Positions 2,506-58,214 of a DNA stretch of 60,566 bases are shown here, one piece after another. The stretch is taken from positions 1-60,566 of the forward strand of contig MNEX01000162.1 in NCBI GenBank assembly GCA_001917905.1. The letters run 5' to 3'. Origin of the DNA: Acidobacteria bacterium 13_1_40CM_65_14. Its GTDB lineage: Bacteria > Acidobacteriota > Vicinamibacteria > Vicinamibacterales > CAVVIG01. The position numbers were made by a program, and so were the translations under genes. The stretch's first letter is position 1. Each line of letters starts with the position of its first letter. The notes below the pieces were generated by a model that had not been told where the DNA came from, ran no database searches, and saw nothing but the letters and a program-made list of their open reading frames with translations.

Positions 2506-3504
2506 TTACATCAGAACAACGAAGGGATGCAAAAGCCCTGGCGTGCGCGCGGCCTCGGCAATGCCGACCAGCGCGCCCGTGGAATCCACCAGCCGGACCA
2601 ATCCCGAATCCGGAGCCGCAAAGCCCGATACGGCATCGCGCGGCGCCAGATCGCGTCCTTGAATCGCGTGGCGCACGCCGTCGAGGGTCAGCACCACGGC
2701 GCGCAACTCCGGCAGCATGCACGCGAGCGGGACGACTGACGCTCTCGCGCGATCGTGATCCTGCTCGGCTGCCGCCAACTCGATCGCGCCGGCGAGCGTG
2801 AACTCGCCGCTCCGCGTCCGCCTCAGCCGCTCGAGGTGCGCGCCCGTGCCGAGCATCTGCCCCAGGTCATGCGCCAGTGACCGCACGTAGAACCCGGCGG
2901 AGCAGTCCACGGTCAGCGTCAGTCGATCTGCTTCGACGCCAACAACTTCGAGCCGGTGAATCGTTACGTTGGCTGGCGCCGGCAGCGCGCCGTCAGACTG
3001 ACGGTCAGACTGTCGGTCAGACTCGCGGTCAGACTGACGGTCAGACTCGCGGTCAGACTGACGGTCAGACTCACCGTCAGACTGACGGTCAGACCTCTGC
3101 CGGGCGCGGGCGAGCTTATGGCTGCGCTTGCCGCCGATCTTCTTGGCTGAGAATGCCGGAGGCTGTTGAAGGAACGTTCCGCGAAACGCGTCGAGTGCGC
3201 GATCGATCGCGTCACGCGACGGCAGGGAACCGGCAAATGGCGATCCGATCGGGGCGCCGACGGCATCGGCAGTGTCAGTCGACACGCCGAGCCGGATGAC
3301 CGCCTCGTACGACTTGTCGCTCGTACTCAGGAACCGCGCGAGCCGCGTCGCGCGACCGACGACCAGCGCCAGTACGCCAGTTGCGAGCGGATCGAGCGTG
3401 CCAGTGTGCCCGACACGCCGCTCGCCGAGCACGCGGCGCAGGCGCGCGACGACATCGTGGCTGGTCGGACCTGACGGTTTGTCGACGACTAGAAGACCGT
3501 CCAT
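2506..3504 (-). CDS. truB: tRNA pseudouridine(55) synthase TruB carrying a repeat-encoded 36-aa insertion
   Basis: N-terminus MDGLLVVDKPSGPTSHDVV and the catalytic-Asp motif GHTGTLDPLATG are present. It occupies the operon position between nrnA and rpsO. An SDRQ/SDRE stretch interrupts the KRSHKLAR..VTIHRLEV region. Confidence 0.93.
   Translation of the reverse strand: MDGLLVVDKPSGPTSHDVVARLRRVLGERRVGHTGTLDPLATGVLALVVGRATRLARFLSTSDKSYEAVIRLGVSTDTADAVGAPIGSPFAGSLPSRDAIDRALDAFRGTFLQQPPAFSAKKIGGKRSHKLARARQRSDRQSDGESDRQSDRESDRQSDRESDRQSDRQSDGALPAPANVTIHRLEVVGVEADRLTLTVDCSAGFYVRSLAHDLGQMLGTGAHLERLRRTRSGEFTLAGAIELAAAEQDHDRARASVVPLACMLPELRAVVLTLDGVRHAIQGRDLAPRDAVSGFAAPDSGLVRLVDSTGALVGIAEAARTPGLLHPFVVLM
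2991..3094. repeat. 12-nt tandem repeat (GGTCAGACTGAC)n, about 8.7 units, inside truB
   Basis: cgtcagactgacggtcagactgtcggtcagactcgcggtcagactgacgg... read directly. The period of 12 keeps the truB frame and encodes SDRQSDGESDRQSDRESDRQSDRESDRQSDRQSDG. The unit is the reverse complement of the unit in the array at 50226-50390. Confidence 0.95.
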
Positions 3505-11607: not shown

Positions 11608-11620
11608 GTTTGACAAAAAG

Positions 11621-11707
11621 CTCTCCACCACAGAGGACACGGTGGACACGGAGGTAAAGACCCGTACGTTTTGCCCCCCGTGTCCTCCGTGCCCCCCGTG
11701 GTGGAGA
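11621..11707. repeat. A-family hairpin repeat (CTCTCCACCACAGAGGACACGGAGGA ... TCCTCCGTGTCCCCCGTGGTGGAG), copy A1
   Basis: ctctccaccacagaggacacggtggacacggaggtaaagacccgtacgttttgccccccgtgtcctccgtgccccccgtggtggagat. It lies between the asnS stop and the rimO start. Confidence 0.92.
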
Positions 11708-11716
11708 TGTTAGCGC

Positions 11717-13012
11717 TCACGGATACAACCTATACAACATCCGGGGATAGGGGATGGCTTCGCGCAGGTGGTCGAGCTTGCAGATCCACGAGACGACGCG
11801 CTCGATGCCCATGCCGAAGCCGCCGTGCGGCACGGTGCCGTAGCGGCGCAAATCGAGATACCACTCGAAGGCTTCCTGCGGGAGCTTGTGCGCCTTGATC
11901 CGCTCGAGCAGCAGCGCGAGATCGGCGAGACGCTCGCCGCCGCCGATGATTTCCCCGTAGCCTTCGGGCGCGAGCACGTCGACGCCGAGCGCGACGTCGG
12001 ATCGATCCGGATCCGGCTTCATGTAAAACGCTTTCACCGCCGCCGGATAGCGATGCACCATCACCGGGCGATCGTATTGCTCGGACAACATCGTCTCGTC
12101 CGGACCGCCGAAGTCGCCGCCCCACTCGATCGGCAGCCCCCTGGCCTGCAGCGTCTTCACTGCCTCGTCGTACGAGATTCGCGGAAACGGTTTCTGCACC
12201 GACTCGAGCTTCGCGATGTCGCGCTCGAGGACTGTCAACTCCCGTCGTCTTTTTTCGAGGACGCGCGCGACGACCGACACGACGAGATCCTCCGCGAGAT
12301 CCATCACATCGTTCAGATCGGCGTACGCCATCTCCGGCTCGACCATCCAGAACTCAGTCAGGTGACGGCGCGTCTTCGATTTCTCGGCGCGGAACGTCGG
12401 TCCGAAGCAGTACACCTTGCCGAGCGCCATCGCGTTCGCTTCGTTGTAGAGCTGCCCGCTCTGCGTCAGGTACGCGGTCTGTTCCTCGAAGTACTGCGCC
12501 GGAAAGAGCGTCGTCGTGCCTTCGCAGGCGGCGGGCGTGAAGATCGGCGTGTCGGCGAGGATGAAGCCGCGCGCGTTGAAGAAGTCGCGGACGGCGTTGA
12601 TGATCTCGTGGCGTACGCGCAGGATTGCCTGCTGCCGCTCGCTGCGGATCCACAGATGACGCCGGTCGAGCAGGTAGTCGACGCCGTGTTCCTTCGGCGT
12701 GATGGGGTAGTCGTGCGACTCGCCGACGACCTCGAGAGTCTTGACGTCGATTTCGTATCCGCTTGGCGCGCGCTTGTCGGCCCGCGCCGTGCCGGTGACG
12801 ATGACCGACGTTTCCTGCGAGAGATGATCCGCGGCCTTGAACAGATCGTCGCCGACATCGGCCTTCGACATCACGCCCTGGATGAATCCGGTGCCGTCAC
12901 GAAGGATCAGAAAATGGATCTTGCCGCTCGACCGGCGATTGTGCAGCCACCCCTTGATGGTGACTTCTTCGCCTTCGTGCTGGCCAATGTCCTCTATGTA
13001 GACGTGAGCCAT
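11717..13012 (-). CDS. asnS: asparagine--tRNA ligase
   Basis: [45 protein letters not shown].., class II motifs ([31 protein letters not shown]) and the typical C-terminal PRMLYRLYP. The track ORF's 43-aa N-terminal extension is rejected. Confidence 0.93.
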
Positions 13013-13719
13013 CGTTCCATCTTCTCCCGCGCGGTCTTCGCCCGTGCGAGCGTCTCCTTCGCGGAGCCACGCGCGTCGACATCGAAGATGAGCGGGCCTT
13101 CGTAGCCGATCTTCTGCACCGTGGTCAGCGCCGAGGCCCAATCGATCGGGCTCTCCAGCGGCACCCGTACCGCGATCAAGTGTTCCGCGACCGTCTCGAT
13201 CGCGTCGATCAAATCGCCGCGGCGCTGCTCGCGCGCGAAATCGAGTCCGATTCCGACGCCGGCCTCGAGATCTTCTTCGACGAAGTGCACCAGCGATCCG
13301 GGCGGCGACCCGTCATCCGGCGCCGCTTCCACCGCAATCGTCACGCCGAGCGGCTTGGCCAGCTCCGCGAGGCGTTCGACACCTCGCCGCGCGGCGTCGC
13401 GCGTGCCCTCCGCGTGCGTCACGAACACCTTCACCGGGATCCGGCGCGCGATGAACAGCGCGTGCTCTGCGTCATCAGGCGTCTCCGCACCGGCGGGCGC
13501 GTGCACGCTGTGCAGCTCGAGACCCGCCTCGGCCAGCCACTGCTGCAGATCGGCCACCACCGCGGGGTTGTGATACTCGACGTGCGTGGGCGCCGCGAAC
13601 AGCTCAACCGTCTCGAAGCCGTGTGCGGCGATCTCGAGCAGGTGCTCTCGGGACAGGCGCTGATGGTGGTAGAGGCGCGTCGACACACCGAACAGTCGTG
13701 TTGCCACAAGACGAACCAT
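12994..13719 (-). CDS. sugar phosphate isomerase/epimerase (xylose-isomerase-like TIM barrel)
   Basis: 241 aa, ..[35 protein letters not shown].. matches the family pattern as I remember it. Confidence 0.7.
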
Positions 13720-13737
13720 TCATTTTACCGCACGAAC

Positions 13738-13822
13738 CTCTCCACCACAGAGGACACGGGACACGGAGGAAAAGCCATGTACGGTTTGACCTCTGCGTCC
13801 TCCGTGTCCCCGGTGGCGGCGA
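13738..13822. repeat. A-family hairpin repeat, copy A2
   Basis: cctctccaccacagaggacacgggacacggaggaaaagccatgtacggtttgacctctgcgtcctccgtgtccccggtggcggcgag. It ends 3 nt before the amgK-like stop codon. Confidence 0.9.
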
Positions 13823-13824
13823 GC

Positions 13825-14865
13825 TTACTGGAGCTCTTCGATGTGCGAGGCGAGCAGATCGTGGAGGCGCGCGAAGCGCGAGTACTTCTCGAGGTTGGAG
13901 CGCGCGTAGCGCAGCGTGCGCGGCATGTACTGAATGTAGACCGGGTTCGCGCGCGTCATGGTCTGGTAGCCGAACGTCCCGAGCGCCTTCAGGTTGCGCT
14001 GCAGCGCCATGAGATCGAATCGGCGCCGGAACTGGTCGGCGCCCCCGTCGGGCGTGCAGCGCGTCAGCGCGAGAAAGTACGCGACGAGCTCGTCGAGCTC
14101 GCGATCGGTGATGTCCACGTACGAGTCGCGCAGCAGCGACACCAGATCGTAGGTGTCCGGTCCCATCCGCGCGTCCTGGAAGTCGATGATGTACAGGCTG
14201 CCATCGCTGAGCATCAGGTTGCGACTGTGATAATCACGGTGGCACAGCACCCGCGGCTCGGTCGCGAGCTCCCGGACGATCGACGCCCATTCATCCGCCA
14301 ACGTGGATCGTTCGGCGGGCGAGAGCGTGACGCCGCGATAGCCGCCGACGAAGTGCTTGGTGAAGAACTCGAGCTCCCACGTGAGCTTGTCGACGTCGAA
14401 TGCACTCTTGTACGGCAGGTAGCGATCCGATTCCAGTTCCTCGCCGCGCCGCTGCAGCAACTCGATGAGCGTGACCGCCTGGCGATACAGCGCCGCATGT
14501 TCGGTTGCCGAGGAGGCTCCCAGGTGAGCCTGCAGCGTGACGTCGCCGAGATCCTGGAGCGCCAGAATGCCGAGCGCATCGGAGTGTCCGAGCACGGCAG
14601 GCACGGGCAGCCCGATTCGCTGCATCAGCTCCGCGACGTTCGCGAAGGGAAGATCGGCGAAGGTGATCGACCCGGCGTGCAGCGCCAGGACGATTGACGG
14701 TTCCTCGTCTGGAATGATCCGGAAGTATTTGCGATCGGATGCGTCGCCGGTCAGCGGCACGACGCGCGCGTGCCGCTCGGCGAGCCCGCTCTCGTGCAGA
14801 TAGCGATCGATCCGATCGCGCACGTCGAGGCGTTGACTCGCGGCGGCCGTCCGCTCAGTCAACAT
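13825..14865 (-). CDS. amgK: aminoglycoside-phosphotransferase-fold kinase, AmgK-like (N-acetylmuramate/GlcNAc anomeric kinase)
   Basis: APH-fold motifs HRDYHSRNLM and IIDFQDA are present, and it lies next to a MurU-like nucleotidyltransferase. The specific substrate is inferred from that pairing. Confidence 0.7.
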   Translation of the reverse strand: MLTERTAAASQRLDVRDRIDRYLHESGLAERHARVVPLTGDASDRKYFRIIPDEEPSIVLALHAGSITFADLPFANVAELMQRIGLPVPAVLGHSDALGILALQDLGDVTLQAHLGASSATEHAALYRQAVTLIELLQRRGEELESDRYLPYKSAFDVDKLTWELEFFTKHFVGGYRGVTLSPAERSTLADEWASIVRELATEPRVLCHRDYHSRNLMLSDGSLYIIDFQDARMGPDTYDLVSLLRDSYVDITDRELDELVAYFLALTRCTPDGGADQFRRRFDLMALQRNLKALGTFGYQTMTRANPVYIQYMPRTLRYARSNLEKYSRFARLHDLLASHIEELQ

Positions 14866-15040
14866 TCTGCCGCGAATCCGGCCCCAGCGCCTGCCACCGC
14901 TCGCTCGTTCGCTCGCGGCGTTGACTCGCGGCGGCCGTCCGCTCAGTCAACATTCTGCCGCGGATCCGGCCCCAGCGCCTGCCACCGCTCGCTCTTCGCT
15001 CGCGGCGTTGACTCGCGGCGGCTGTCCGCTCAGTCGACTC
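14832..15040. repeat. 87-88-bp tandem direct repeat, about 2.4 copies, spanning the murU-like 3' end, the spacer and the amgK-like 5' end
   Basis: Copies start with gttgactcgcggcggc at 14832, 14920 and 15007. Copies 1 and 2 are near-identical. Each unit begins with the palindrome gttgactcgcggcggccgtccgctcagtcaac. Confidence 0.93.
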
Positions 15041-16040
15041 TCAGTGGCGATCCGTCGTCGCCTTGACTGATGACGCAGCGACTGTGTGTTGCCCCGGCGG
15101 CGACCGTGGCGCCATCGGTCACGATGCACTCCTCAATCACCGCGTCCGCGCCAACCTCCACATCGTCCCACAGAATCGAGTCGACGATGCGGGCCGACGG
15201 GTGAATGCGGGAACGCAACCCTACAGTTGAGCCGGCGCGGTCTTCTCGCGTCGCGAATGCATGAGATGTGCGCCGGTAATCCTCGGTCGTGCCGACGTCG
15301 AAGAACTCCGCGCGACAGACCACTCCGCGAACCGAGCCTGGACTTGCCGCGATGAGCGCGTCGTACACGCCGCCGATGGAGCTTGCCGGCTCGCCCGGCG
15401 TCAGCGGAGCGAACACCGATGCGTGCGCGACCTGCACGCCGATGAAGTGATACGAGCCTTTCGCAGACGGACCACGTCGCACGAAGCCCGTGACTCGTCG
15501 CTCGTCGTCCAGCATCACGCCGCCGTACCGCTCGAATTCTTCGTTGGGCACGAGCGCGAGCGTGACGAGCGCGCCCGAATCGGCATGCGTCCGGCCAATC
15601 GCCGTGAGATCGACGTCGGTCAGCGTGTCGCCGTTGATGATGAAAAACGTGTCGGTCGCAACGAGCGGCAGCGCGAGTCGAGGACCGCCGGCGGTTCCGA
15701 GCACGCGCGGTTGTTCCCACGAGTAGCGCACGCGCGCCGCGAGATCGCTGCCGTCGCCGACGACGGCCGTCAGCGTTTCAGGAAGGTGGTGCACGTTGAG
15801 AACGAGGTCGGTGACGCCGCGCGAGACGAGCCAGCGAATGATCCGCCGAATCATCGGCTGCCCGGCGACCGGGATCGCCGGTTTCGCGCGGACGTCGGTC
15901 AGCGGCCGGAGCCGTGTGCCGAGGCCGGCCGTGAGCACGAGCGCGTGATCGATCGGCGCCAGCTTAGACTCCGATTGGACGGCCGCGGACGTGCAACACG
16001 CGCCGCAAGAATTCGTACATCGTGAAACATTCGAACGCAA
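15030..16040 (-). CDS. murU: nucleotidyltransferase, MurU-like (sugar-1-phosphate uridylyl/nucleotidyl transferase) with a C-terminal left-handed beta-helix region
   Basis: LTAGLGTRLRPLT signature, ..INGDTLTDVDL.., and a hexapeptide-like C-terminus. The start is uncertain, because ATG 16040 overlaps the upstream gene by 77 nt. Confidence 0.7.
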   Translation of the reverse strand: MRSNVSRCTNSCGACCTSAAVQSESKLAPIDHALVLTAGLGTRLRPLTDVRAKPAIPVAGQPMIRRIIRWLVSRGVTDLVLNVHHLPETLTAVVGDGSDLAARVRYSWEQPRVLGTAGGPRLALPLVATDTFFIINGDTLTDVDLTAIGRTHADSGALVTLALVPNEEFERYGGVMLDDERRVTGFVRRGPSAKGSYHFIGVQVAHASVFAPLTPGEPASSIGGVYDALIAASPGSVRGVVCRAEFFDVGTTEDYRRTSHAFATREDRAGSTVGLRSRIHPSARIVDSILWDDVEVGADAVIEECIVTDGATVAAGATHSRCVISQGDDGSPLRVD

Positions 16041-16814
16041 ACGTGGGAAAGCCGAGATAGCCGGGAACGGGCATCTCGAAGACCTTCAGGTGTTCCATGA
16101 TCGGCACGCTGTAATGCCACTTCGCGTGCGCCCAGTAGTTCCAGAATTCCCATAGCAGGCCGCAGAGCACACCGCTCAGCGCGAGATTGATCGTGCGGTC
16201 GAATCGGCCAGCGCGCCACTCGGCGAGCAGCGACTCCCCACCGAGCCGCGCGTTGATCGGATCGAGCAGGAAGATGAACCCGAGCCAGACGGGCGCCGCC
16301 ATGTAGCGCGCAGCCTGTGGCGAGACGAGAATGGATGGGCCGGATCGGCAAGACCATCGTGCCCATCCCGACCCTCCCATCCCGCCTGTCCCGCCTGTCC
16401 TGCCTGTCCCGCCCCTCCTGCCTGTCCCGCCCGTCCTGCCCTGAGGACCGCGAACAATTCCGCGCCTTCGAAGATCGCCGGTGAGATTGTTGCGAACGAC
16501 CACGCGTAGCCGAAATGCCGGAGCCAGAAGTTCTCGGGCAATCCCGTGTAGTGCCAGTTCCGTATATAGAGGTTGAACCACTCGAACACGAGCCACAGCG
16601 GAATCGACGCGAGCGCGAGCAGCGCGAACTCGCCTGGTGCGGATCGAATCCACGAGTCGCCGCGCGCACGATAGACGATCGAATCGGCGAAGATGATGAA
16701 CCCGGTCCACGCAATCGGCGTGTTCCACGACCAGAACGGCTCGATGTGGAGCAGCGTGGCCGTCTCGGAGACGACCATGATCGCCAAGCCGATCCATGGG
16801 AGAAACCTCTCCAC
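15964..16814 (-). pseudogene. multi-pass membrane protein of unknown family with internal two-fold duplication; frame changes inside a repeat insertion
   Basis: The N-half (frame of track ORF 16176..16913) reads ..PLWLVFEWFNLYIRNWHYTGLPENFW..ISPAIFEGAELFAVLR. The C-half (frame of 15964..16797) reads ..MAAPVWLGFIFLLDPINARL..GLLWEFWNYWAHAKWHYSVP... The two halves resemble each other and are joined through the 9-mer array at 16363-16443 in different frames. Confidence 0.6.
16363..16443. repeat. 9-nt tandem repeat (CCCGCCTGT-like)n, about 9 units
   Basis: cccgcctgtcccgcctgtcctgcctgtcccgcccctcctgcctgtcccgcccgtcctgccc. On the coding strand it reads as collagen-like GQAGRAGQAGGAGQAGQAG. Confidence 0.9.
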
Positions 16815-16821
16815 GATTGAA

Positions 16822-16901
16822 CTCTCCACCACAGAGGACACGGAGGAAGAATCTCGTACGTTTTTCCCCGCGTGTCCTTCGTGGCCCCCGTGGTGATGAG
16901 G
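16822..16901. repeat. A-family hairpin repeat, copy A3
   Basis: ctctccaccacagaggacacggaggaagaatctcgtacgtttttccccgcgtgtccttcgtggcccccgtggtgatgagg. Its loop shares CGTACGTTTT with A1 and A2. Confidence 0.9.
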
Positions 16902-16909
16902 TTCAATGT

Positions 16910-18379
16910 TCATGTAACCCGCATCTTGTACGAGCAGCCACGGAGCGCCGGCGTGCCGACGCCTTTGCCGAAGATCAGAATCTTGTGTGTGCTCCCAAGA
17001 CCCCCAGGCATGATCAGCGTCTTGAGATTGCGGATTGCGGATTGCGGATTGGGGGTTGATTGCGGATTGCGGATTTCAGGGAACAGACCCATCAAAAAGT
17101 ACGTCTGGTCCAGGAATCCGAGCGTCTGCAATCCTTCTTCCTCCGCCGCTTGGCGCACGCTCGTGAAGTCGACGTGCGCGGTGATGTCCTGCTCTCCGGG
17201 CGACTGCAGCCAAGGCGGTGCCGCTGCAGATGATTTTCTATCGCTCGTGGGGCCCCACCCCCACTCGGGCACCCCAGCGCGCACAGACCGCGCGCCGGGG
17301 ACCCCGCCGCTGCGGCTCGACTCGCGACGCTCGCTCGCCGCGGCCGCAGGCGCTTCCGGTCCCGCGCTGCGATGGCCGCTGTAGCTCGTGAGCGTTCCGG
17401 CTGCGTGCGTCGGCGAGTACAGCTCGCGCGCTTCGTGACCGTAGTCAATCAGGATGATGAACCCGCGCCGCAGACGCCGGGCCGCGTCGCGGATCCACTC
17501 GACGGCGCGAAGATTGATCTCCACGCGCCACCCTGCTTCGAGCTCGATACCGAGGCGCGCCAGATATTCCGCAAGCTTTGGCGTGGACGGGGGCCCTTCG
17601 ATTACGGTGAGGCCATCATCATTCTTGACATCTCGCGGGGCCCCACCCTCTCGCACCGCGCCGGGGCCCCACCCCCGGCGCTGTTGCTCGGCGCCAGCGC
17701 CTCGCAACGGCTCAAGGCTGTCGCTCGCCGACGCCCTCGCGCCGTGGCGCTCGGGCGTATCCAGAACAGAGCGTCGCTGACTGATGACGTACGTCTCGCG
17801 CAGGCCCTCTTCACGCATCACCACCTGATGCACGGGCAATGCGTCGAGGAGCTCGTTGGCGATGACCACACCGTCGAACGAACAGGGGAATGACGCGTCG
17901 GAAGAGGCGAGTCGTTCGGCGACATCGGCGAGCGTCGCCCGCTGCGCCGCACGCGCCCCGGCGCTGGCTTCGACGAGATGGAGCTGGATGGTGTCGTAGA
18001 ACGCGCGATCGCGTTCCCGCGCGGCGCGGAGGATGTCGGCGCTGAGCCGGCCGTTGCCGGCGCCGGCCTCGACTAGGTCGAATGCAACCGCGGAGCGCGC
18101 AGAGCGCGCTGAGTTGTGATGGATTCTCTCGGCGTTCTCAGCGACCTCTGCGGTTGCTTGGAGGATGCTCGCGATCTCGGCGAGCTGGATTTCGAGGAGC
18201 TCGCCGAACAGCGGACCGACATCGACGCTGGTAAAAAAATCGCCCGCGCGGCCAGATCGCTGGTCCGCGCGGGCGTAGTAGCCGAGCTCGGGATGGTAGA
18301 GCGCGAGGTCCATGAACGCAGCCACGGTCATCGGGCCGCGTTCACGAATCAAATCTGCAATCTGCAATCCAATCTGCAA
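16910..18379 (-). CDS. MidA-like (DUF185) SAM-dependent methyltransferase carrying several repeat-encoded insertions
   Basis: ..LIRERGPMTVAAFMDLALYHPELGYYA.., FFTSVDVGPLFGELL, LVEAGAGNGRLSADIL and GFIILIDYGH are present. At 489 aa it is about 100 aa longer than I remember for this family. The start is a TTG inside a heptamer array. Confidence 0.8.
   Translation of the reverse strand: MQIGLQIADLIRERGPMTVAAFMDLALYHPELGYYARADQRSGRAGDFFTSVDVGPLFGELLEIQLAEIASILQATAEVAENAERIHHNSARSARSAVAFDLVEAGAGNGRLSADILRAARERDRAFYDTIQLHLVEASAGARAAQRATLADVAERLASSDASFPCSFDGVVIANELLDALPVHQVVMREEGLRETYVISQRRSVLDTPERHGARASASDSLEPLRGAGAEQQRRGWGPGAVREGGAPRDVKNDDGLTVIEGPPSTPKLAEYLARLGIELEAGWRVEINLRAVEWIRDAARRLRRGFIILIDYGHEARELYSPTHAAGTLTSYSGHRSAGPEAPAAAASERRESSRSGGVPGARSVRAGVPEWGWGPTSDRKSSAAAPPWLQSPGEQDITAHVDFTSVRQAAEEEGLQTLGFLDQTYFLMGLFPEIRNPQSTPNPQSAIRNLKTLIMPGGLGSTHKILIFGKGVGTPALRGCSYKMRVT
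17036..17086. repeat. 7-nt tandem repeat (GATTGCG)n inside the 3' part of the MidA-like gene
   Basis: gattgcggattgcggattgcggattgggggttgattgcggattgcggattt. It encodes ..EIRNPQSTPNPQSAIRN.. in frame. Confidence 0.92.
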
Positions 18380-21396: not shown

Positions 21397-23502
21397 ATGA
21401 CAGAACGTGTACGACTTGCCGCGCTCCTCACGTTCCTCGCCGGGACGGCGCTCGTTGCCGGCCAGAATCCTCCGGCGTCCAGTCCGCCGCCGCCGCAGCC
21501 GCCGCCCGCTCCGAACCAGGGACCGACGTTCCGCGTCCGCGTCGACTACGTGGAAGTGGACATCGTGGTCACCGATCGTCAGGGCAACCTCGTCCGCGAT
21601 CTGAAGAAGGACGATTTCCAGGTCCTCGAGGACGGAAAAGCGCAGTCGATCAGCGCGTTTTCGCTCGTCGACATTCCCGTCGAGCGCGCGGATCGGCCGC
21701 TGTTCCAGCCGGATCCAATCGAACCGGATGTGAAGACGAACGAGCATCCGTTCGACGGCCGCATCTATGTGATGGTCATCGACGATTACCACACGAACTT
21801 CGGCCGGACGGCGCGCGTGAAAGGCGCCGCCAAGCAGTTCATCGAGCGGCGCCTGGGCGCCAATGATCTGATGGCCATCGTGCACACGGCCGGCGCGACG
21901 GCGGCGAACCAGGAATTCACGAGCAACAAGAAGCTGCTGCTCGGGGCGGTCGACAAGACGCAGGGCCGCAAGCTGAAGTCGTCGACCGCGAATCGGACCG
22001 AGGAGTACTACCGCACGCGCGATCTCCGCCAGTCAGGCGATCCGCTGAACGATCCCGAGGACGCGGAGCGCGCGTTCAATGCGCGGTCGACGCTCGACAC
22101 GCTCCGCAACGTGGCTGAATGGTTCTCGTCGGTCCGTGGGCGGCGCAAGACGATCCTCTTGGTCAGCGAAGGGATCGACTACGACATCCACGACATCATC
22201 GCGCAGACCGGGTCGAACCATATGGGCGCGTCGATGGTGCTCGACGCGACGCGCGACGCCATCGCCGCGGCCACGCGTGCCAACGTCTCGATCTACGGCA
22301 TCGATCCGCGCGGCCTGACGGATCTCGGCGACGAGTCGATTGAGATCGGGTCGTTCCCCGACGACACATCGCTCGGCATCGGCACCGGATCGCTCTACAA
22401 CGAGCTGCGGATGGCGCAGGACTCGCTGCGCGTGCTGTCGGAGGAAACCGGCGGCTTCGCCGTCGTGAACAAGAACGACTTCAGCACCGCCTACGATCGG
22501 ATCGTCAAGGACAACAGCTCGTACTACGTGCTCGCGTACTATCCACCCGACGCACGGCCGGGACGCGTTCACAAGATCGATGTGCGCGTCACGCGTCCGG
22601 GACTCACCGTGCGCGCCCGCAAGGCGCACGTCACGCCGAAGGACGTGAAGGCGGCGCCGGTCAACGCCAAGGACGTCCGGACGCCGGAGATCCGCGACGC
22701 GCTCGACAGCCCGCTGCCGTTGAGCGGTCTGACGATGCACGTGTTCGCGGCGCCGTTCAAGGGCGCGGCGCCCAACGCGTCGGTCCTGTTCGGCGTCGAG
22801 ATGCGCGGCAAGGATCTGCGGCTGGCCAATGCCGACCGTTTGCAGCTGTCGTACTACGCCATCGACGCGCAGGGGAAGGTGCGCGGCGGCAACACTGACG
22901 CGATCACGATGAACCTGCGGCCGGACACCAAGGCGCGTATCGCGGAACAGGGCGTGCGGATGCTGAATCGAATCGACCTGCCGCCGGGCCGGTATCAGCT
23001 CCGGTTCGCCGCGCACGATTCGGGAGGTGGCGCCGTCGGCTCGGTGCTCTACGACCTCGAGGTGCCCGACTTCGTGAAGTCGCCGATCAGCATGAGCGGC
23101 ATCGCGCTCACCTCGCAGGCCGCCGCGGTCCGGCCGACCGTGCGTCCCGACGAGCAGCTGCGCGCCGTACTGCCGGCGCCGCCGGTCGCGCTGCGGACGT
23201 TCCCGCAGGACGACGAGGTCGCGCTGTTTGCCGAAATCTACGACAACTCCGCGTCGACGCCGCACAAAGTCGACATCACGTCGACGGTGACGACCGACGA
23301 GGGCAAGGTGCTGTTCAAGACCGAAGAAGAACGTGATTCGAGTGACCTTGGGGGCAAGACCGGCGGCTACGGCTATACGGCAAAAATTCCGATGAAGGAT
23401 CTCGCGCCGGGCCCGTACGTGCTGACCGTGTCCGCGCGGTCGCGCGTCAGCCCGAATCCGACGGTTCAACGACAGGTCCGGATTAACGTCACTGGACGCT
23501 GA
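21397..23502 (+). CDS. VWFA-related acidobacterial-type secreted protein (TIGR03436-like)
   Basis: Signal peptide, Pro-rich linker, then FRVRVDYVEVDIVVTDRQGNLVRDLKKDDFQVLEDGKAQSISAF, the characteristic N-terminal module. A VWA-like core follows. Confidence 0.85.
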   Translation: MTERVRLAALLTFLAGTALVAGQNPPASSPPPPQPPPAPNQGPTFRVRVDYVEVDIVVTDRQGNLVRDLKKDDFQVLEDGKAQSISAFSLVDIPVERADRPLFQPDPIEPDVKTNEHPFDGRIYVMVIDDYHTNFGRTARVKGAAKQFIERRLGANDLMAIVHTAGATAANQEFTSNKKLLLGAVDKTQGRKLKSSTANRTEEYYRTRDLRQSGDPLNDPEDAERAFNARSTLDTLRNVAEWFSSVRGRRKTILLVSEGIDYDIHDIIAQTGSNHMGASMVLDATRDAIAAATRANVSIYGIDPRGLTDLGDESIEIGSFPDDTSLGIGTGSLYNELRMAQDSLRVLSEETGGFAVVNKNDFSTAYDRIVKDNSSYYVLAYYPPDARPGRVHKIDVRVTRPGLTVRARKAHVTPKDVKAAPVNAKDVRTPEIRDALDSPLPLSGLTMHVFAAPFKGAAPNASVLFGVEMRGKDLRLANADRLQLSYYAIDAQGKVRGGNTDAITMNLRPDTKARIAEQGVRMLNRIDLPPGRYQLRFAAHDSGGGAVGSVLYDLEVPDFVKSPISMSGIALTSQAAAVRPTVRPDEQLRAVLPAPPVALRTFPQDDEVALFAEIYDNSASTPHKVDITSTVTTDEGKVLFKTEEERDSSDLGGKTGGYGYTAKIPMKDLAPGPYVLTVSARSRVSPNPTVQRQVRINVTGR

Positions 23503-23690
23503 GCGCCTGCGGCCTCGCCGAGCCGCGGCCGTGTGAAGCCGCGGCGAGGTGTCAGCGATAGATCACGGCGAGAGTTGGCGACAGCAGCGCCGGGGGTGGC
23601 CCCCGGCGCCAGTGAAAAAGCGCCTGCGGCCACACGTCGCCGAGGACCTGAAAATCCGAGGCGACGTGTCAGCGAAAGGTCGCGGCGGGG
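23503..23690. repeat. two copies of a roughly 70-nt structured unit about 117 nt apart, flanking a perfect GC hairpin
   Basis: Units begin gcgcctgcggcc at 23503 and 23620 and both end ..gtgtcagcga(t/a)ag. Each contains its own stem (cctcgccg..cggcgagg; cgtcgcc..ggcgacg). The central hairpin is gcgccggggg-tgg-cccccggcgc at 23587-23609. Confidence 0.75.
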
Positions 23691-23715
23691 GGCGACAACG
23701 ACAACGACGGCCACG

Positions 23716-27980: not shown

Positions 27981-29005
27981 CGTTCAGAGCAGGCGCCGAC
28001 GAGCGCAGCGAATGTGGAGAGATCGATGTTGCCGCCGGACACGACGGCGACCACTTTGCCGGCGCCCGCGCGTCCGCTGAGTGCAGCGGCGATCGCGCAG
28101 CCGGCGGCGCCTTCCGCGATGATGCGTGCGCGCTCGGCGGCGAGCTTCATCGCGCGCGCGACCTCGTCGAGCGTGACGACGATCGATCCAGACAACTGCG
28201 AGAGCAGCGGCCACATGCTGGCCAGGACCGATTTCCCGCCGGCGCCGTCGACAAACGACGCCTTCCAATTGTCGAAGTACATGGGGCGTCCCGCAGCGAG
28301 GGAGACCGAGAGCGGCGCCGCCGTTTCCGGTTCGGCGGCGTAGACGCGCGTGTCCGGCTTCAGCTCGCGCACCGCCGCCGCGATCCCCGAGAGCAATCCG
28401 CCGCCGCCGAGCGGTGCGACGATGGCGTCGACGCCGGGGAGATCTTCGAGAATCTCCAGTCCGGCCGTCCCGTTGCCCGCGATGAAGCGATCGTCATCGA
28501 AGGGATGCACGAAGTGTCCGCGCATGCGATCCGACGCATGCGACTCGACGGTCTTCCACGCGTCGTCGTAGGTCGTCCGGACGATCGTCGCGCCGAGCCG
28601 CTCGATCGCGTCCACCTTGGTTTGCGGCGCGGTGTCCATCACCATCACCGAGCAGGCCGCGCCGACCTTGCGCGCAGCGTAGGCGACGCCTTGCGCCGCG
28701 TTGCCCGCGCTGACCGTCCATACGCCGTCCTTCAGCTCGTCGCGCGTGAGCTGGCGCACGACGTTGTAGGCGCCGCGGATCTTGAACGAGCCGATCGGCT
28801 GCAGCACCTCGAGCTTCAGGTACACCTCGGGACCGGCGGGGAGCTCGATTCGAATCAGCGGCGTTCGGACGGCGGCGCCGTACACAGCCGTGGCGGCGTC
28901 TCGGATGGCGGCGAGCGGGATGTGGCGGCCGGAGATCGTCGTCGGCAAGACGGTCGATGGTAGTCGCCTCAGCTCAGGCGGGTCAATGCTCCGCGCCCGC
29001 CTCAT
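27977..29005 (-). CDS. PLP-dependent serine/threonine dehydratase family enzyme
   Basis: LQPIGSFKIRGAYN (PLP Lys) and GGGGLLSG. Its start overlaps the glgP stop region (ATGA-type junction). Confidence 0.85.
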   Translation of the reverse strand: MRRARSIDPPELRRLPSTVLPTTISGRHIPLAAIRDAATAVYGAAVRTPLIRIELPAGPEVYLKLEVLQPIGSFKIRGAYNVVRQLTRDELKDGVWTVSAGNAAQGVAYAARKVGAACSVMVMDTAPQTKVDAIERLGATIVRTTYDDAWKTVESHASDRMRGHFVHPFDDDRFIAGNGTAGLEILEDLPGVDAIVAPLGGGGLLSGIAAAVRELKPDTRVYAAEPETAAPLSVSLAAGRPMYFDNWKASFVDGAGGKSVLASMWPLLSQLSGSIVVTLDEVARAMKLAAERARIIAEGAAGCAIAAALSGRAGAGKVVAVVSGGNIDLSTFAALVGACSER

Positions 29006-29012
29006 CCGTAAT

Positions 29013-29107
29013 GGTCATTGGTCATTGGTCATTGGTCATTGGTCGTTGGTCGTTGGTCGTTGGTCATTGGTCATTGGTCATTGGTCATTGGTCATTAGTC
29101 GTTGGTC
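29013..29107. repeat. 7-nt microsatellite (GGTCATT/GGTCGTT), 13 units plus a partial unit
   Basis: Counted unit by unit from 29013. It contains the stop and last 7 codons of the 29085-29531 gene and ends 8 nt before the start codon of the dehydratase gene (29005). Confidence 0.97.
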
Positions 29108-29531
29108 GGAAGCGCTCTTCGATGAACGCGATCAGTTCATCGAGTGACCCGTAGCCGAAGGTCGTGCACGCGCCGTCGCAGTTGCCGACGATGAGGCGCG
29201 AGATGGCGTGGCGGCGAGTGCGGTCGTAGAGGAGCACCACCTGCTGACCGGTGACCGGCGAGCGACCGAGCACATAACCGACCTCGAAGCCCACGCCGTA
29301 TGTGGATCCCGACGCTTCGGCGACGAGCACGTCACATTGCGAGAGCCAGTCGAGATCGCGACGATAGACGTCCTCCTCGGTCAGCTTCGACTCCGCCTCG
29401 TTGACGTCGGCGGCGAGCAGGTGCGTCGTCAACACCCGATGACCGAGCTCGTGCAGGCGCTCCGAGATCGCGCGACCTGCGGCCACGCCGCCGCGATCGC
29501 CGCGAACCGTGCACGCGAGATAGATCGTCAC
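29085..29531 (-). CDS. nucleoside 2-deoxyribosyltransferase-like / DNPH1(Rcl)-like protein
   Basis: MTIYLACTVRGDRGG.., ..DLDWLSQCDVLVAEASGSTYGVGFEVGY.. matches the family pattern as I remember it. Confidence 0.65.
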   Translation of the reverse strand: MTIYLACTVRGDRGGVAAGRAISERLHELGHRVLTTHLLAADVNEAESKLTEEDVYRRDLDWLSQCDVLVAEASGSTYGVGFEVGYVLGRSPVTGQQVVLLYDRTRRHAISRLIVGNCDGACTTFGYGSLDELIAFIEERFRPTTNDQ

Positions 29532-29541
29532 ACGTCGCGAG

Positions 29542-30729
29542 TCATTTCTTCAGGAGCTCGCGAACCTTCTCGATGGGGATGGCCTGCGCGGTGCCGACGC
29601 GTGACGTCGTCGTGGTCGCCTGGAACAGCGAGTTGTACACCGCTTCTTCGGTCGCCTCGAGCGCCGCTTCGAAGAGGGGAGACATCGCGTCGGGCGGCAG
29701 CACCTGCCGCGCGCGCGGCGTCGTCTCGTCGAACCGGCTGCGCATCTCCAGCGAGGTCGAGAACGCGATCGCGAAATCGCCGCTGCCATTGCTGTAGGCC
29801 GATCCCGTGCGGGCGAGGCCGAATACGGCGCGTCGCGCGAGGCGCTGCAGATCGCGCGCGTCGCACGGCGCATCGGTCGCGACGACGAGCATGCAGGACC
29901 CATGAGCTGACGCCGGGTCCACAGGACCCGGCCTACGTACGTCCGCAGACCGCCGCGACGGCGGTTGCAGAAGTTTGAAGATCGGAACGCCGCTGATCGT
30001 GAGGTTGCCGCCGAAGTTCGTTTGGGCCAGCACGCCGACCGTGTATGCCCCGACGCGCCCTGAGCCTGTCGAAGGGTCGACTTTTCGCGACGAAGTCCCG
30101 ATGCCGCCTTTCCATCCGTAGCAGATCGTTCCGGTGCCCGCGCCGACCGCGCCTTCCGTCACCGCTCCGCTCTTCGCGTTTCTGATCGCGTCGATGACGT
30201 GCTCGCGCGAGACGTGCAGTCCGCGGATGTCGTTCAAGCCACCGTCGTTGGTTTCACCCACGACCGCGTTCACCGATCGCACCTGCTCGTTGCCCGGTTG
30301 TGCCAGGGTGTAGCGGACGACCGCGTCCATCGCCGCGCCGACACTCAACGTGTTGGTCAGCACGATCGGCGTTTCGATCGTGCCGAGCTCGTTCACCTGG
30401 GTCGATCCCGCGAGCTTGCCGAACGCGTTGCCGACGAAGACGGCGCCCGCCACCTTGTCCTGAAACACGTTGCCGCCATGCGGAACGATCGCCGTCACGC
30501 CCGTCCGCACGTCGTCGCCCTCGATGAGCGTCGTGTGACCGACGCGCACGCCGTCGACATCGGTGATCGCGTTGAGCGGTCCCGGCTGATACACGCCCGG
30601 CGCGATGCCGAGATCCCGGGCGCGCGGCCGGCTTTGGCCCACGACGGCCACGCCGCTCTGTGCAGAAATGAGCACGACGAGGAGTCCAAGCCACTTTCGG
30701 CCAGCGTGAGGCTTACATGGCTCTTGCAT
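29542..30729 (-). CDS. P1/S58-family (DmpA-like) aminopeptidase
   Basis: Signal-like N-terminus, GPLNAITDVDGVRVGHTT.., GVTAIVP, VVGETNDGGLNDIRG, GAGTGTICYGWKGGIGTSS and VVATDAP. Met 30729 is preferred over the track start at 30765. Confidence 0.85.
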   Translation of the reverse strand: MQEPCKPHAGRKWLGLLVVLISAQSGVAVVGQSRPRARDLGIAPGVYQPGPLNAITDVDGVRVGHTTLIEGDDVRTGVTAIVPHGGNVFQDKVAGAVFVGNAFGKLAGSTQVNELGTIETPIVLTNTLSVGAAMDAVVRYTLAQPGNEQVRSVNAVVGETNDGGLNDIRGLHVSREHVIDAIRNAKSGAVTEGAVGAGTGTICYGWKGGIGTSSRKVDPSTGSGRVGAYTVGVLAQTNFGGNLTISGVPIFKLLQPPSRRSADVRRPGPVDPASAHGSCMLVVATDAPCDARDLQRLARRAVFGLARTGSAYSNGSGDFAIAFSTSLEMRSRFDETTPRARQVLPPDAMSPLFEAALEATEEAVYNSLFQATTTTSRVGTAQAIPIEKVRELLKK

Positions 30730-30844
30730 GACGGAATTGTACTGGTATGATGCGCGACAGCTCAAAGCTACTCAGTCCCCTAATGGTCCATACCGTCGTC
30801 TGCCCCACGACGACGCGGGTTGGTGTGTTGTCGGCGGAGGGTGC

Positions 30845-33334: not shown

Positions 33335-33339
33335 ACGCT

Positions 33340-33435
33340 GAATCGGGTAATTGGATAATCGGGTAATCTGGTAATTGGATTGCTCGATTGACCAATCCGC
33401 TTACCCGATCACCCGATTACCCGATTACTCGATTC
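33340..33435. repeat. hairpin with (GGGTAATYG)-type repeat arms
   Basis: gaatcgggtaattggataatcgggtaatctggtaattggattg-ctcgattga-ccaatccgcttacccgatcacccgattacccgattactcgattc. Same family as 58197-58312. There is a half-copy at about 36570-36600. Confidence 0.9.
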
Positions 33436-36543: not shown

Positions 36544-36598
36544 CGACGATCAACGCCGAGCACAATCAATGACCCGATTACCAGATTCCCCGATTCGG

Positions 36599-37689
36599 TT
36601 ACTCACCGCGCAGCGCGACCATCGGATCCACGCGCGTGGCGCGCCGCGCCGGAATGTAGCTCGCGAGGAGCGCGACGGTCAGCAGGCCGGACGCGACGAC
36701 GATGAACGTGATCGGATCGGCAGCGCTGACGTTGAACAGGAGACCGCGAATCAGGCGCGCGCCGGCGAGCGCGATGACCGATCCGAGCGCGACGCCGATG
36801 AGCGCGAGCTTGCCGCCCTCGTTCAGCACCATCCGCAGGACGTCCGCCGGCTTCGCGCCGATGGCCATGCGCACGCCGATTTCGTGCGTGCGCTGCGACA
36901 CCGAGTAGGCCACCACGCCGTAGACGCCGACGGTCGCGAGCGCGACCGCGAGGCCGCCGAGCAGCGCGAACAGCACCATGTTCAGCCGGCGATCCGACGT
37001 CGAATCCGCCAGCACGCGGTCCATCGACGCCACCTCGGAGACTCCAAGCTTCGCGTCGACCGCGCGGATGGCGGCGCGCGCATGACCGATCGGCGCCAGT
37101 AGGTCCGCCTCGCGTAGTCGAGCGGAATCCGCAGCGACGCCGGCAGGATGCCAACGACGGTGTGCGGGACCGCGTCGAGTTGAATGTCGCGTCCGACGAT
37201 TGACGGATCCGATCCGAACTGCGATCGCCACAATCCTTCGCTGAGCATCGCGACGTGCTCGTGACCTGGTTGATCCTCCTGCCCGGTGAACACACGGCCG
37301 GCGATCGGCTGCACGCCGAGCGCGTCGAACATCGGCGCCTGCACCCGCGCGGCGGCGACGCGCACCGCATCACCGGCGCCGGTGAGATTGAACGACGTCG
37401 TGTCGAACGCGGACACGTGCTCGAGCGATGTCGCCTGCGCGCGATAGTCCGCGAGCTCCGGCTCCGACACCCACGTCTTCGTCCAGTTGGTCCAATGGCT
37501 CCACATCATCACCACGCGATCCGGATCGTGGTACGGCAGCGGGCGCAACACCACAGCGTCGATGATGCTGAAGATCGCCGTGTTGGCGCCGATGCCGAGC
37601 GCGAGTGTCAGCAGCGCCACAAGCGTGAAGCCTGGTTGCTTGACGAGCGTGCGGATCGCGAAGCGAACGTCTTGAAAAAATGTCGTCAC
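36599..37689 (-). pseudogene. ADOP/MacB-type (FtsX-domain) ABC permease, frameshifted and probably internally deleted
   Basis: N-part [41 protein letters not shown].. runs to ..IPLDYARR (track 36982..37689). It then continues in another frame as [49 protein letters not shown] (track 36599..37231). There is no ABC ATPase next to it. Confidence 0.75.
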
Positions 37690-39714: not shown

Positions 39715-39810
39715 CCTCGCCACCACGGGGGACACGGAGGATAGGAGGTTCGAACCTGTTCAAAGCGGGATTTTTCCTCCGCGTCCCCCGTGTCCTCCGC
39801 GGTGGAGAGC
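39715..39810. repeat. A-family hairpin repeat, copy A4 (left composite inverted repeat, part 1)
   Basis: cctcgccaccacgggggacacggaggataggaggttcgaacctgttcaaagcgggatttttcctccgcgtcccccgtgtcctccgcggtggagagc. It closely matches the reverse complement of A5. Confidence 0.9.
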
Positions 39811-39830
39811 TTCGATTCTGCAACATGCGC

Positions 39831-39975
39831 TAACAGCCCGTGGTGAAAGTCTGGCTGCATTCGACGGGCGATGCATCCCCGCCGGCTGCGTTGCTCCTCG
39901 CTCAAATACTCCCGGTATTGCACCCCACCTCGCCCGTCTCGGTGCGACGCCAGACTTTCACCACGGGCTGCTAAG
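39831..39975. repeat. B element, 145 nt, perfect 21-bp terminal inverted repeats (MITE-like or structured RNA), left copy
   Basis: AGCCCGTGGTGAAAGTCTGGC ... GCCAGACTTTCACCACGGGCT. Its reverse complement is identical to the copy at 47841-48006 over about 47 nt and about 89 nt blocks, differing only in a central 8- versus 29-nt segment. Confidence 0.93.
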
Positions 39976-47805: not shown

Positions 47806-47840
47806 GACGTCGCATCATACCTTTAGAGTGCGCTGCAGAA

Positions 47841-48006
47841 TTAGCAGCCCGTGGTGAAAGTCTGGCGTCGCACCGAGACGGGCGAGGCGCCCCGCCGGCA
47901 AGGCGCGACGACCGAGAATACCGGGAGTATTTGAGCGAGGAGCAACGCAGCCGGCGGGGATGCATCGCCCGTCGAATGCAGCCAGACTTTCACCACGGGC
48001 TGTTAA
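47841..48006. repeat. B element, 166 nt, right copy (inverted relative to 39831-39975)
   Basis: ttagcagcccgtggtgaaagtctggcgtcgcaccgagacgggcgagg...aataccgggagtatttgagcgaggagcaacgcagccggcggggatgcatcgcccgtcgaatgcagccagactttcaccacgggctgttaa. Confidence 0.93.
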
Positions 48007-48007
48007 G

Positions 48008-48093
48008 CCTCGGTGGACACGGGGGACGCGGAGGAAGGTCTTGTTTGAATGGTTTTCAACCTCCTGTCCTCCGTGTCCCCCGTGGTGGTGAGG
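48008..48093. repeat. A-family hairpin repeat, copy A5 (right composite inverted repeat)
   Basis: cctcggtggacacgggggacgcggaggaaggtcttgtttgaatggttttcaacctcctgtcctccgtgtcccccgtggtggtgagg. Confidence 0.9.
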
Positions 48094-50185: not shown

Positions 50186-50225
50186 CGTCGCCTGATGAGC
50201 TGAGCAAGCCTCGTACCGTGTCACG

Positions 50226-50390
50226 AGTCTGACCGTCAGTCTGACCGCCAGTCTGACTGTCAGTCTGACCGCTAGTCTGACCGTCAGTCTGACCGTCAGT
50301 CTGACCGCCAGTCTGACCGTCAGTCTGACCGTCAGTCTGACCGCCAGTCTGACCGCTAGTCTGACCGCCAGTCTGACCTCGAGTCTGACT
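50226..50390. repeat. 12-nt tandem repeat (AGTCTGACCGYC)n, 13 full units plus a partial unit
   Basis: Counted unit by unit. It is the same 12-mer as inside truB, in opposite orientation. It lies in the divergent gap between the PIG-L gene and the 50399 ORF. Confidence 0.97.
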
Positions 50391-50398
50391 TGTAAGGA

Positions 50399-50743
50399 TT
50401 GCTTCTTGCCGCATGGCTGGACGTGGATCGGGAAAAGCGCGACAGGCGACTGAAAAAAGCGATCCTCATCACCTTCGTCCTCGCCGCCGCCAATTCGCGC
50501 TTCATCAACGGCGTGCACCACGGCTTCGTCGACTTCAGTTATCACGGATGGCATCAGGAACTGCTCACCAAACGCATCACGCCCGACGATGTGCGGTGGA
50601 TGAGCGAGCGGCTGGCGAAGTTGTCCGACGCGCAGTGGCGCGACGCGTTCCGCGCGGGCGGCTTCAATCCGCCGATCGCGGATCGGTTCGTCCGCCGTCT
50701 CAAGGCGACGATCGATGAAGGCCGGAAGCTAACGACCTCTTGA
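50399..50743 (+). CDS. hypothetical protein, possibly only the 3' fragment of a larger gene
   Basis: The ORF starts with TTG directly at the end of the 12-mer array. ..LSDAQWRDAFRAGGFNPPIADRFVRRLKATIDEG.. looks like a conserved C-terminal module I have seen in larger secreted proteins (from memory only). Confidence 0.4.
   Translation: MLLAAWLDVDREKRDRRLKKAILITFVLAAANSRFINGVHHGFVDFSYHGWHQELLTKRITPDDVRWMSERLAKLSDAQWRDAFRAGGFNPPIADRFVRRLKATIDEGRKLTTS

Positions 50744-56849: not shown

Positions 56850-58196
<1,347 letters not shown>

Positions 58197-58214
<18 letters not shown>

Follow-up and report, generated by a model that had tools for sequence, protein, structure and literature searches.

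The closest described analogue of the elements analysed here is the intervening sequence (IVS) of 23S rRNA, found in Leptospira, Coxiella and Salmonella with or without an S23p (four-helix-bundle) open reading frame (ORF). In Coxiella, the IVS comprises an inverted-repeat stem, a variable number of tandem heptamers (GACAGAT) in front of the ORF start and a small, decaying ORF of unknown function, and it is excised by RNase III (PMC4990558). The elements in question are five hairpins, designated A1 to A5, in a stretch of 60,566 nt (contig MNEX01000162.1, forward strand, hereafter the window) from the assembly GCA_001917905.1 of Acidobacteria bacterium 13_1_40CM_65_14. They are probably the ORF-less form, comparable to a miniature inverted-repeat transposable element (MITE), of a compact hairpin-cassette family named here after its GxxExxY gene. 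As judged from sequence, the full cassette consists of inverted arms of two to four C(A/G)CNGAG units with one to three spacer bases, ending in (T)TCACC(A/G)C (here CTCTCCACCAC), around a GxxExxY gene of about 125 amino acids (aa).

Cassettes and IVS have in common a long inverted-repeat stem with a loop that holds a small ORF of unknown function, as well as the additional occurrence of ORF-less forms of about 100 nt. As in the cassettes, tandem units of variable number (heptamers in the IVS) lie between stem and ORF start, and both kinds of element are regarded as selfish, with a decaying ORF (PMC4990558). Excision of the IVS stem by RNase III could serve as a concrete model for the RNA stem of the A family. 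The two differ in location, the IVS lying in helix 25 or 45 of 23S rRNA and the A family between protein-coding genes, and in cargo, which is PF05635 in the IVS and a PD-(D/E)XK protein (GxxExxY) in the cassettes.

Repetitive extragenic palindromic (REP) elements, REPINs and REPtrons resemble the A family as non-coding palindromic repeats at gene 3' ends without target duplication, and REPtrons resemble the cassettes in that one small nuclease-type gene is bracketed by the same repeats (PMC3733652). A REP is defined as an imperfect palindrome of 20–40 nt with a conserved GTAG (or CGTC) tetranucleotide head (PMC3733652), whereas the A arms are built of CAC(A/G)GAGGA tandem units with neither internal palindromy nor such a head. 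The partner of REP is a HUH Y1 transposase; that of the cassette arms, which consist of tandem units of 7–9 nt, is a PD-(D/E)XK protein. Unlike REPtrons, the cassettes carry the ORF inside the hairpin, are themselves multi-copy and are spread across phyla and domains. Correia and ERIC elements, palindromic MITEs that form RNA hairpins, are similar to the A family as imperfect palindromes of about 100 nt in transcribed intergenic spacers, with presence varying between close relatives, and RNA-level processing is expected for both. They differ from it in their TA duplication and DDE-transposase origin, as the A family lacks a duplication and has a different partner protein.

All five palindromic elements of the window, each 80–95 nt long, were confirmed at the positions given in the preliminary description, and families D5, D7 and D13 of an independent repeat finder corresponded to the A copies, which were recovered in this way without prior knowledge. 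The core GGACACGGAGGA, with at most two mismatches, occurred 21 times in the window against 7.5 expected, a number reached by none of 100 shuffles. The arms had been described as common to all copies and are indeed shared; they proved to be composed of tandem 9-nt units, CAC[A/G]GAGGA, with CTCTCCACCAC as the left cap and GTGGTGGAGAG as the right one; the number of units per arm varies among the copies. The loops, 20–45 nt in length, contain no ORF. The loops of A1 to A3 share a GTAC motif, previously given as CGTAC, which reads TGTAC in A2. The separation of A4 and A5 as a second subfamily was upheld by their common TTCAA..CCTG..AAACAGG loop, and the two copies are opposite in orientation.

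As stated earlier, A1 to A3 (no strand assigned) lie between consecutive genes of a minus-strand run, which comprises Methyltransf_28, an unknown gene, NTP-transferase, APH kinase, TIM-barrel, AsnRS and MiaB-like genes; each starts 1–9 nt past the upstream stop codon and ends 13–25 nt ahead of the next start. A1, with the GTAC-type loop, occupies 11621..11707 between the AsnRS stop (TGA, 11717-11719) and the MiaB-like start (ATG, 11607), and its full insert relative to empty sites covers 11608-11716. A2, of the same loop subfamily, extends over 13738..13824, directly after the APH-kinase stop (TAA, 13825-13827) and upstream of the TIM-barrel start at 13719. A3 was delimited at 16816..16908, a core at 16822-16901 with 7 extra bp, and abuts the Methyltransf_28 stop (TGA, 16910-16912); beside it, at 16806-16814 and 8 nt ahead of the following ATG (16797), part of an arm is repeated as GTGGAGAGG.

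A5 (48004..48093, minus strand), of the A4 subfamily, lies 11 nt after the stop of the minus-strand gene 48105-49559, so a stop codon stands 1–11 nt upstream of A1, A2, A3 and A5. The exception is A4 (plus strand), whose hairpin at 39715-39810 extends to 39715..39830 with an outer module, GATTCTGCAAC.GCGC, at 39814-39830. It is located in a divergent gap between gene starts at 39684 (minus) and 40033 (plus), which disproves the claim that all five copies sit in gaps bounded by gene ends. A4 and A5 each adjoin a TA-flanked MITE unrelated to the A family, by which the outer end of A5 is broken; its outer module, TTCTGCAGCGCAC, resumes beyond the MITE at 47827-47841. On both sides of some hairpins of this subfamily elsewhere (L091, 5790-5930; L095, 2330-2470; L044, 3130-3290), an outer palindromic module, GCGTTGCAGAATCAAG ... 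CTTGATTCTGCAACGC, was observed, so that hairpin and module together form nested palindromes about 130 nt long; in the window (39814-39830 and 47827-47841), the module is one-sided. The motif GATTCTGCAAC was also considered as a sigma-70 or sigma-54 promoter and rejected, as the spacings were wrong by inspection and the motif is part of the longer two-sided palindrome in L091, L095 and L044.

Comparison of the window arms with those around GxxExxY genes in related Acidobacteriota showed the same sequence in both, a correspondence apparent at three loci. At L060 (Acidobacteriota), two window-type arms 450 nt apart enclose an ORF in the order CGCTCCACCACGGAGGACACGGAGGACACAGAGGA, 9 nt, ATG..GxxExxY ORF..CCCTCCGTGACCTCCGTGTCCTCTGTGGTGGAGAG; the ORF, which is frameshifted, was recognised as GxxExxY by TIGR04256 (E = 2e-43) and PF13366 (PDDEXK_3; E = 3e-42). 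At L001, from the same metagenome-assembled genome (MAG DASYQZ01) as a syntenic relative of the window, a window-type arm adjoins the GxxExxY C-terminus. At L009 (Verrucomicrobiaceae), a GxxExxY gene has a complete hairpin on each side.

A metagenome scan for GxxExxY relatives yielded 600 candidates, of which 550 were confirmed, and 80 loci were kept. By eye, nearly all of these carried TTCACC(A/G)C(N)GAG and tandem units upstream and the reverse complement downstream, and the unit type (CACGGAG, CGCAGAG, CGCCGAG or CACTGAG) co-varied between both arms. Inverted flanking arms with a score of at least 30 were detected for 45 of 76 metagenomic GxxExxY ORFs; when the flanks were shifted by 300 nt as a control, none of 46 reached this score. 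In all sampled loci, 1492 ORFs of 95–170 aa were screened without regard to family; inverted repeats flanked 35 of them, and 34 of these were GxxExxY. Small ORFs between inverted repeats were thereby shown to be GxxExxY almost without exception in this sample of loci, and no other small-ORF cargo was found there in similar hairpins.

The cassettes are compact, with arms that often touch the start and stop codons. The upstream neighbour was co-oriented in 35 of 37 cassettes, usually with a gap of less than 20 nt after its stop, and the downstream neighbour in 25 of 32; no cassette was located in a divergent gap. The proposed definition of a cassette arm is a terminal (T)TCACC(A/G)C or CTCCACCAC, followed by two to four tandem C(A/G)CNGAG units, with the reverse complement as the other arm. 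All of A1 to A5 show this structure when compared with L060, L001, L103 and the 45 metagenomic cassettes, and A1, A2, A3 and A5, but not A4, also have the typical position a few nucleotides past a host stop. The window elements were filed as ORF-less derivatives, and not as cassettes, because their loops are ORF-free and tblastn was negative for GxxExxY in the window.

Both forms were shown side by side on an archaeal contig of Candidatus Methanoperedens (L183), where 200 nt separate an ORF-less hairpin from a full cassette and the two are almost identical in arms and left flank; the relation of the two forms is directly visible there, in an archaeon. A scan with CCACCACRGRGGACACGG, with one genome per species, gave at least 97 loci, and among those listed at least about 64 looked genuine, the seed being followed by a further unit or a partner arm. 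Most of the listed loci were in Acidobacteriota, and genuine hairpins were also present in Planctomycetota, Verrucomicrobia, Treponema, Deltaproteobacteria, Betaproteobacteria, Holophagae and Saprospirales, including some A+T-rich genomes. The expectation that further copies exist was accordingly borne out, the elements being a dispersed hairpin repeat family with many copies in the genome of the window and in others. At three loci (L039, L073 and L076), solo 5' arms were seen directly upstream of ordinary gene starts, with the GGAGGA of the arm 8–12 nt before the ATG; there, a stranded arm may serve as a ribosome-binding site.

Derived loops were repeatedly shared between sites. The GTAC loop is common to A1, A2, A3, L078 and L029, and the other loop to A4, A5, L053, L064, L091, L032 and L087, at different sites and in different genomes; the ORF-less hairpins therefore evidently spread as short forms. 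The same observations bear on the possibility that each short hairpin is an in-place remnant of a full GxxExxY cassette after loss of the ORF and is not itself mobile. Deletion between inverted or tandem repeats is easy, the arms are common to full and short forms, and the ORF of L060 is frameshifted. Independent deletions would, however, not yield the same loops at different sites and genomes, and among the arm-pattern loci listed a complete hairpin was present in at least 38, against a GxxExxY ORF beside the arm in three (L001, L009 and L060). Decay in place is therefore considered improbable as the origin of the short hairpins.

The probable status of A1 to A5 as short forms of the GxxExxY family was further examined at their own junctions. 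The window (G+C content 65%) originates from an uncultured soil member of Vicinamibacterales (Acidobacteriota); its AsnRS is 90–98% identical to soil-metagenome proteins, of which the named ones are from Vicinamibacterales, and the sequencing runs that contain window sequence are soil metagenomes. The comparative sequences were metagenome contigs and MAGs throughout, and neighbouring genes were called by heuristics of our own, based on ORFs and GC frame. Two metagenome contigs and MAG DASYQZ01 (L099, L100 and L101), from a related Vicinamibacterales lineage, had the gene order of the window at 80–87% nucleotide identity. All three lacked hairpins at the A1, A2 and A3 sites, where the junctions measured only −1 to 22 nt: AsnRS and MiaB overlapped (TGATG), APH and TIM-barrel were separated by 22 nt, and Methyltransf_28 and the next gene by 5 nt. 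The excess in the window over these empty sites was 109, 95 and 102 nt for A1, A2 and A3, respectively.

Closer relatives gave intermediate states. An orthologous A1 was present in L189 (98% AsnRS identity), and L186 (94%) carried an orthologous A2 with an empty A1 site (TAATG), A1 also being absent in L099. In L187 and L188 (93%), a complex A-type insertion was found at the A1 junction and an GTGAATTG 8-mer hairpin at the A2 junction, after the APH stop (L187, 5189-5285; L188, 1970-2066); L187 also had a CGCAGAG-type hairpin after the Methyltransf_28 stop, at the A3 junction (2085-2190). Different tandem-unit hairpins at the same short junctions point to repeated independent invasion of those junctions. 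Because relatives with conserved gene order lack them at these junctions, A1 to A3 are, on this sequence evidence, lineage-specific insertions and not conserved terminators or processing sites.

MAG DASYQZ01, empty at all three sites, holds the A family elsewhere (L001, L016, L055, L064 and L078). In soil metagenomes, the arms occurred in many different surroundings: the depth in the bin with the left arm of A1 was about 300–790, compared with about 6–20 where the sequence is single-copy, and the loose ends at the borders of the arms were heterogeneous. Population variants in metagenome contigs showed the arms to be multi-copy, and alleles were not separable from paralogues. In one further comparison, L100 (17667-20653) differed from L099, apparently of the same lineage, by inversion of a DUF503 / RbfA / DHH block downstream of IF2, either a real or an assembly difference.

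Each A copy was predicted to fold into a single long hairpin of −39 to −68 kcal/mol (z = −4.2 to −10.3), with stems of 30–40 bp, and none of 200 shuffles folded as well; A1 on the minus strand reached −68.2 kcal/mol. The preliminary description proposed a host-selected RNA element, namely an intrinsic terminator, mRNA stabiliser or processing site, the sequence of which would be kept by selection on transcript structure. Several observations agree with this explanation: four of the five copies start 1–11 nt past a stop codon, a T5 run follows the stem of A1, and A1 to A3 are more stable on the transcribed strand. The proposal relied on the mismatches of A1, four of five arm mismatches having been given as A opposite C. 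The four A·C mismatches were found again, as part of eight in 40 aligned stem positions, together with one G·T and three transversions.

For all copies, A·C on the plus strand, which becomes G·U on the minus strand, was counted against G·T on the plus strand, with values of 4 and 1 for A1, 5 and 4 for A2, 3 and 1 for A3, 3 and 2 for A4, and 0 and 1 for A5. Pooled over A1 to A3, G·U exceeded A·C on the transcribed strand by 12 to 6, which was not statistically significant, and A4 and A5 showed either no such trend or the opposite one. In other genomes, the sense strand was more stable in about eight of 16 copies between co-directional genes, and A5 was less stable on its transcribed strand. The strand bias previously claimed was not sustained by these counts. 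In ORF-bearing cassettes, 112 G·U and 86 A·C pairs were counted on the sense strand (p = 0.075; 23:9 per locus), an excess that is at most a slight tendency. Orientation of the short hairpins by likeness of their loops to the cassette leader was attempted and rejected as ambiguous, because the loop itself is nearly palindromic. In the A4 subfamily, where orientation was fixed by alignment, copies occurred in both orientations relative to the neighbouring genes.

The remaining evidence is against selection on the transcript. At the same junctions in relatives, the hairpins are absent and the genes overlap or abut, and A4 stands in a divergent promoter gap. The A1 spacer was 86.6% identical between the window and L189, compared with 84.7% at third codon positions of AsnRS; the A2 spacer was 74% identical between the window and L186, compared with 86.8% in the APH gene, and its ortholog in L186 is decaying, with a degraded fold. 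Both spacers would accordingly change at about the synonymous rate, which fits near-neutral inserted DNA. Both arms of the cassettes conserve the unit cores, and their spacers frequently do not pair (135 transversion mismatches, compared with 1612 Watson–Crick pairs), which points to the units being recognised and not just paired. Among A1 to A5, a T-run follows the stem in A1 only, and with stems of 30–40 bp, downstream starts 13–25 nt away and the divergent location of A4, the short GC-rich stem-loop and U-run of an intrinsic terminator were not found. Neither a tRNA gene nor rRNA was detected in the window, and an Rfam scan of it gave no matches at the gathering threshold; sub-threshold matches were restricted to generic miRNA-precursor hairpins (best 36.6 bits, threshold 70). 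No RNA sequencing run contained window sequence. Selection on RNA structure is hence regarded as unlikely to account for the A family, and that part of the preliminary description was abandoned.

A REP/REPIN-type element spread by a REP-associated tyrosine transposase (RAYT, a Y1 HUH enzyme) was judged very unlikely. It would explain extragenic, palindromic, multi-copy repeats at gene 3' ends without target duplication, and REP families shared across orders are known (PMC3733652); however, the GTAG or CGTC head is missing, single arms are not palindromic but consist of tandem 9-mers, and the arm-bracketed gene is GxxExxY, as in 34 of the 35 inverted-repeat-flanked small ORFs. No RAYT was seen next to any A copy, in 60 kb of the source genome and a window not scanned gene by gene for Y1_Tnp. 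The RAYT partner suggested earlier gives way to the GxxExxY PD-(D/E)XK genes, to which the evidence points instead. A classical terminal-inverted-repeat (TIR) MITE moved by a DDE transposase is hardly credible, since, despite the small size, the terminal inverted repeats and a true TA-duplicating MITE with CCGTGGTGAA-like ends beside A4 and A5, three filled and empty sites were compared without a target-site duplication, the whole element is palindromic and built of tandem units, and no related insertion sequence with a DDE transposase was seen. Taken together, the A family falls outside the TIR-MITEs, the intrinsic terminators, every Rfam family and, by head and palindrome, the REP elements.

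The assignment of A1 to A5 to the GxxExxY hairpin-cassette family has its own difficulties, and the following points weigh against it. The GxxExxY gene is absent from the 60-kb window by tblastn, and neither a target-site duplication nor a defined cleavage site was seen when filled and empty sites of A1, A2 and A3 were compared. The inverted-repeat score remained below 30 in 31 of 76 cassettes; in some of these, a contig end truncates the cassette or the arms lie at a greater distance. The sampled GxxExxY loci were picked by two conserved peptide patterns, and repeats can break or mis-join the assemblies of the metagenome contigs and MAGs used. Mobilisation by the GxxExxY nuclease is a step that we infer from architecture, since repeated units stand in inverted arrays at either end of the element, an arrangement that many transposons also show. 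Finally, the association of GxxExxY with the arms may be known informally to database curators. Literature queries with the arm sequence returned unrelated primers only, and those for GxxExxY, PDDEXK_3 or TIGR04256 passing mentions only; the link to the arms is undescribed in the searchable literature, which is not proof of novelty.

The GxxExxY protein (TIGR04256, PF13366) has about 125 aa and an intact PD-(D/E)XK motif; among 77 sequences, E27, D67 and E77 were invariant and K79 was 99% conserved. A homologue search gave at least 8000 candidates, with matches of 70–73% identity in Verrucomicrobia, an archaeon and a candidate-phylum bacterium. "Multiple transfers" have been noted for PDDEXK_3 (PMC3424549), in agreement with the cross-phylum and cross-domain spread observed here. 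A sequence search of the PDB found no relative of GxxExxY. A confident AF2 model (pLDDT 90.7) gave only weak matches in a fold search, led by Cas4 and lambda-exonuclease-type nucleases (E ~1e-3, TM ~0.5). In one soil metatranscriptome, contigs covered the GxxExxY ORF of another locus, too thinly to map ends.

In the mechanism proposed for the cassette family, the GxxExxY nuclease would recognise the tandem units and move both the full and the ORF-less form in trans. An inserted element would be co-transcribed with its neighbours, and an RNA stem of 30–40 bp would then stand right behind the stop codon, where it may break the translational coupling of the flanking genes. By analogy with REP elements and the 23S rRNA IVS, the stem would likely be an RNase III substrate, to be processed, or an exonuclease barrier that protects the end. 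A benefit to the host, if any, would be secondary.

The MITE copies beside A4 and A5 do not belong to the A family. Copy 1 (39833..39971, plus strand) lies in the TA of the A4 outer module, with a 23-nt TIR, (A/G)CAGCCCGTGGTGAAAGTCTGGC, and TA flanks at 39831-32 and 39972-73; copy 2 (47844..48003, minus strand) lies at the TA between the A5 hairpin and its outer module, with TA flanks at 48004-05 and 47842-43. The copies are inverted and 100% identical over 89 + 47 nt, with an IS630/Tc1-like TA duplication. Between them lie 8 kb with ordinary genes (NAD synthase, patatin, MFS and peptidase S9), and the pair could mediate inversion of this segment.

Hairpins at 33332-33451, 58177-58323 and 36570-36620 have an A-like architecture with another unit, their arms consisting of tandem 8-nt units (GGGTAATC / GATTACCC). 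One of them comes after the stop of the plus-strand gene 30728-33334, and another is located between convergent genes; in the sampled loci, no counterpart of this type with an ORF was found. Arrays of the 12-nt palindromic unit GTCAG[A/T]CTGAC + N were observed at 2971-3110 and 50202-50425, about 90% mutually complementary and 47 kb apart. Further repeats were tandem TGGTCAT/TGGTCGT 7-mers (28998-29122), an 88-nt unit present three times between the NTP-transferase and APH genes (14820-15049), CCCGCCTGT 9-mers within an ORF without a Pfam match (16351-16440), and a pair of 92-nt repeats at a spacing of 117 nt (23502-23710).

On a broader scale, it is tentatively suggested that GxxExxY cassettes may be an undescribed class of minimal mobile element in Bacteria and Archaea. 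Its members would hold a nuclease of about 125 aa in the loop, have arms that are arrays of their own recognition units, insert in sense behind stop codons, and so be expressed by read-through, and leave ORF-less offspring such as A1 to A5. Together with the 23S rRNA IVS, they might form one broader kind of element, with an ORF in a hairpin and stems of tandem units.

For annotation, the cassette family accounts for a class of hairpin repeats between genes, in soil Acidobacteria and in other phyla, for which terminator or REP would otherwise be the label. It further indicates that tightly coupled operon junctions are repeatedly invaded, as between AsnRS and MiaB, where relatives have the TGATG overlap and the window a stem of −68 kcal/mol. 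GxxExxY / PDDEXK_3 is a large protein family without an assigned function, for which the arms are the first concrete candidate nucleic-acid partner. The family is now tied to a defined nucleic-acid structure, to a position just after stop codons in the sense direction and to a non-coding derivative, which makes it testable whether the protein binds, cuts or moves the arms.

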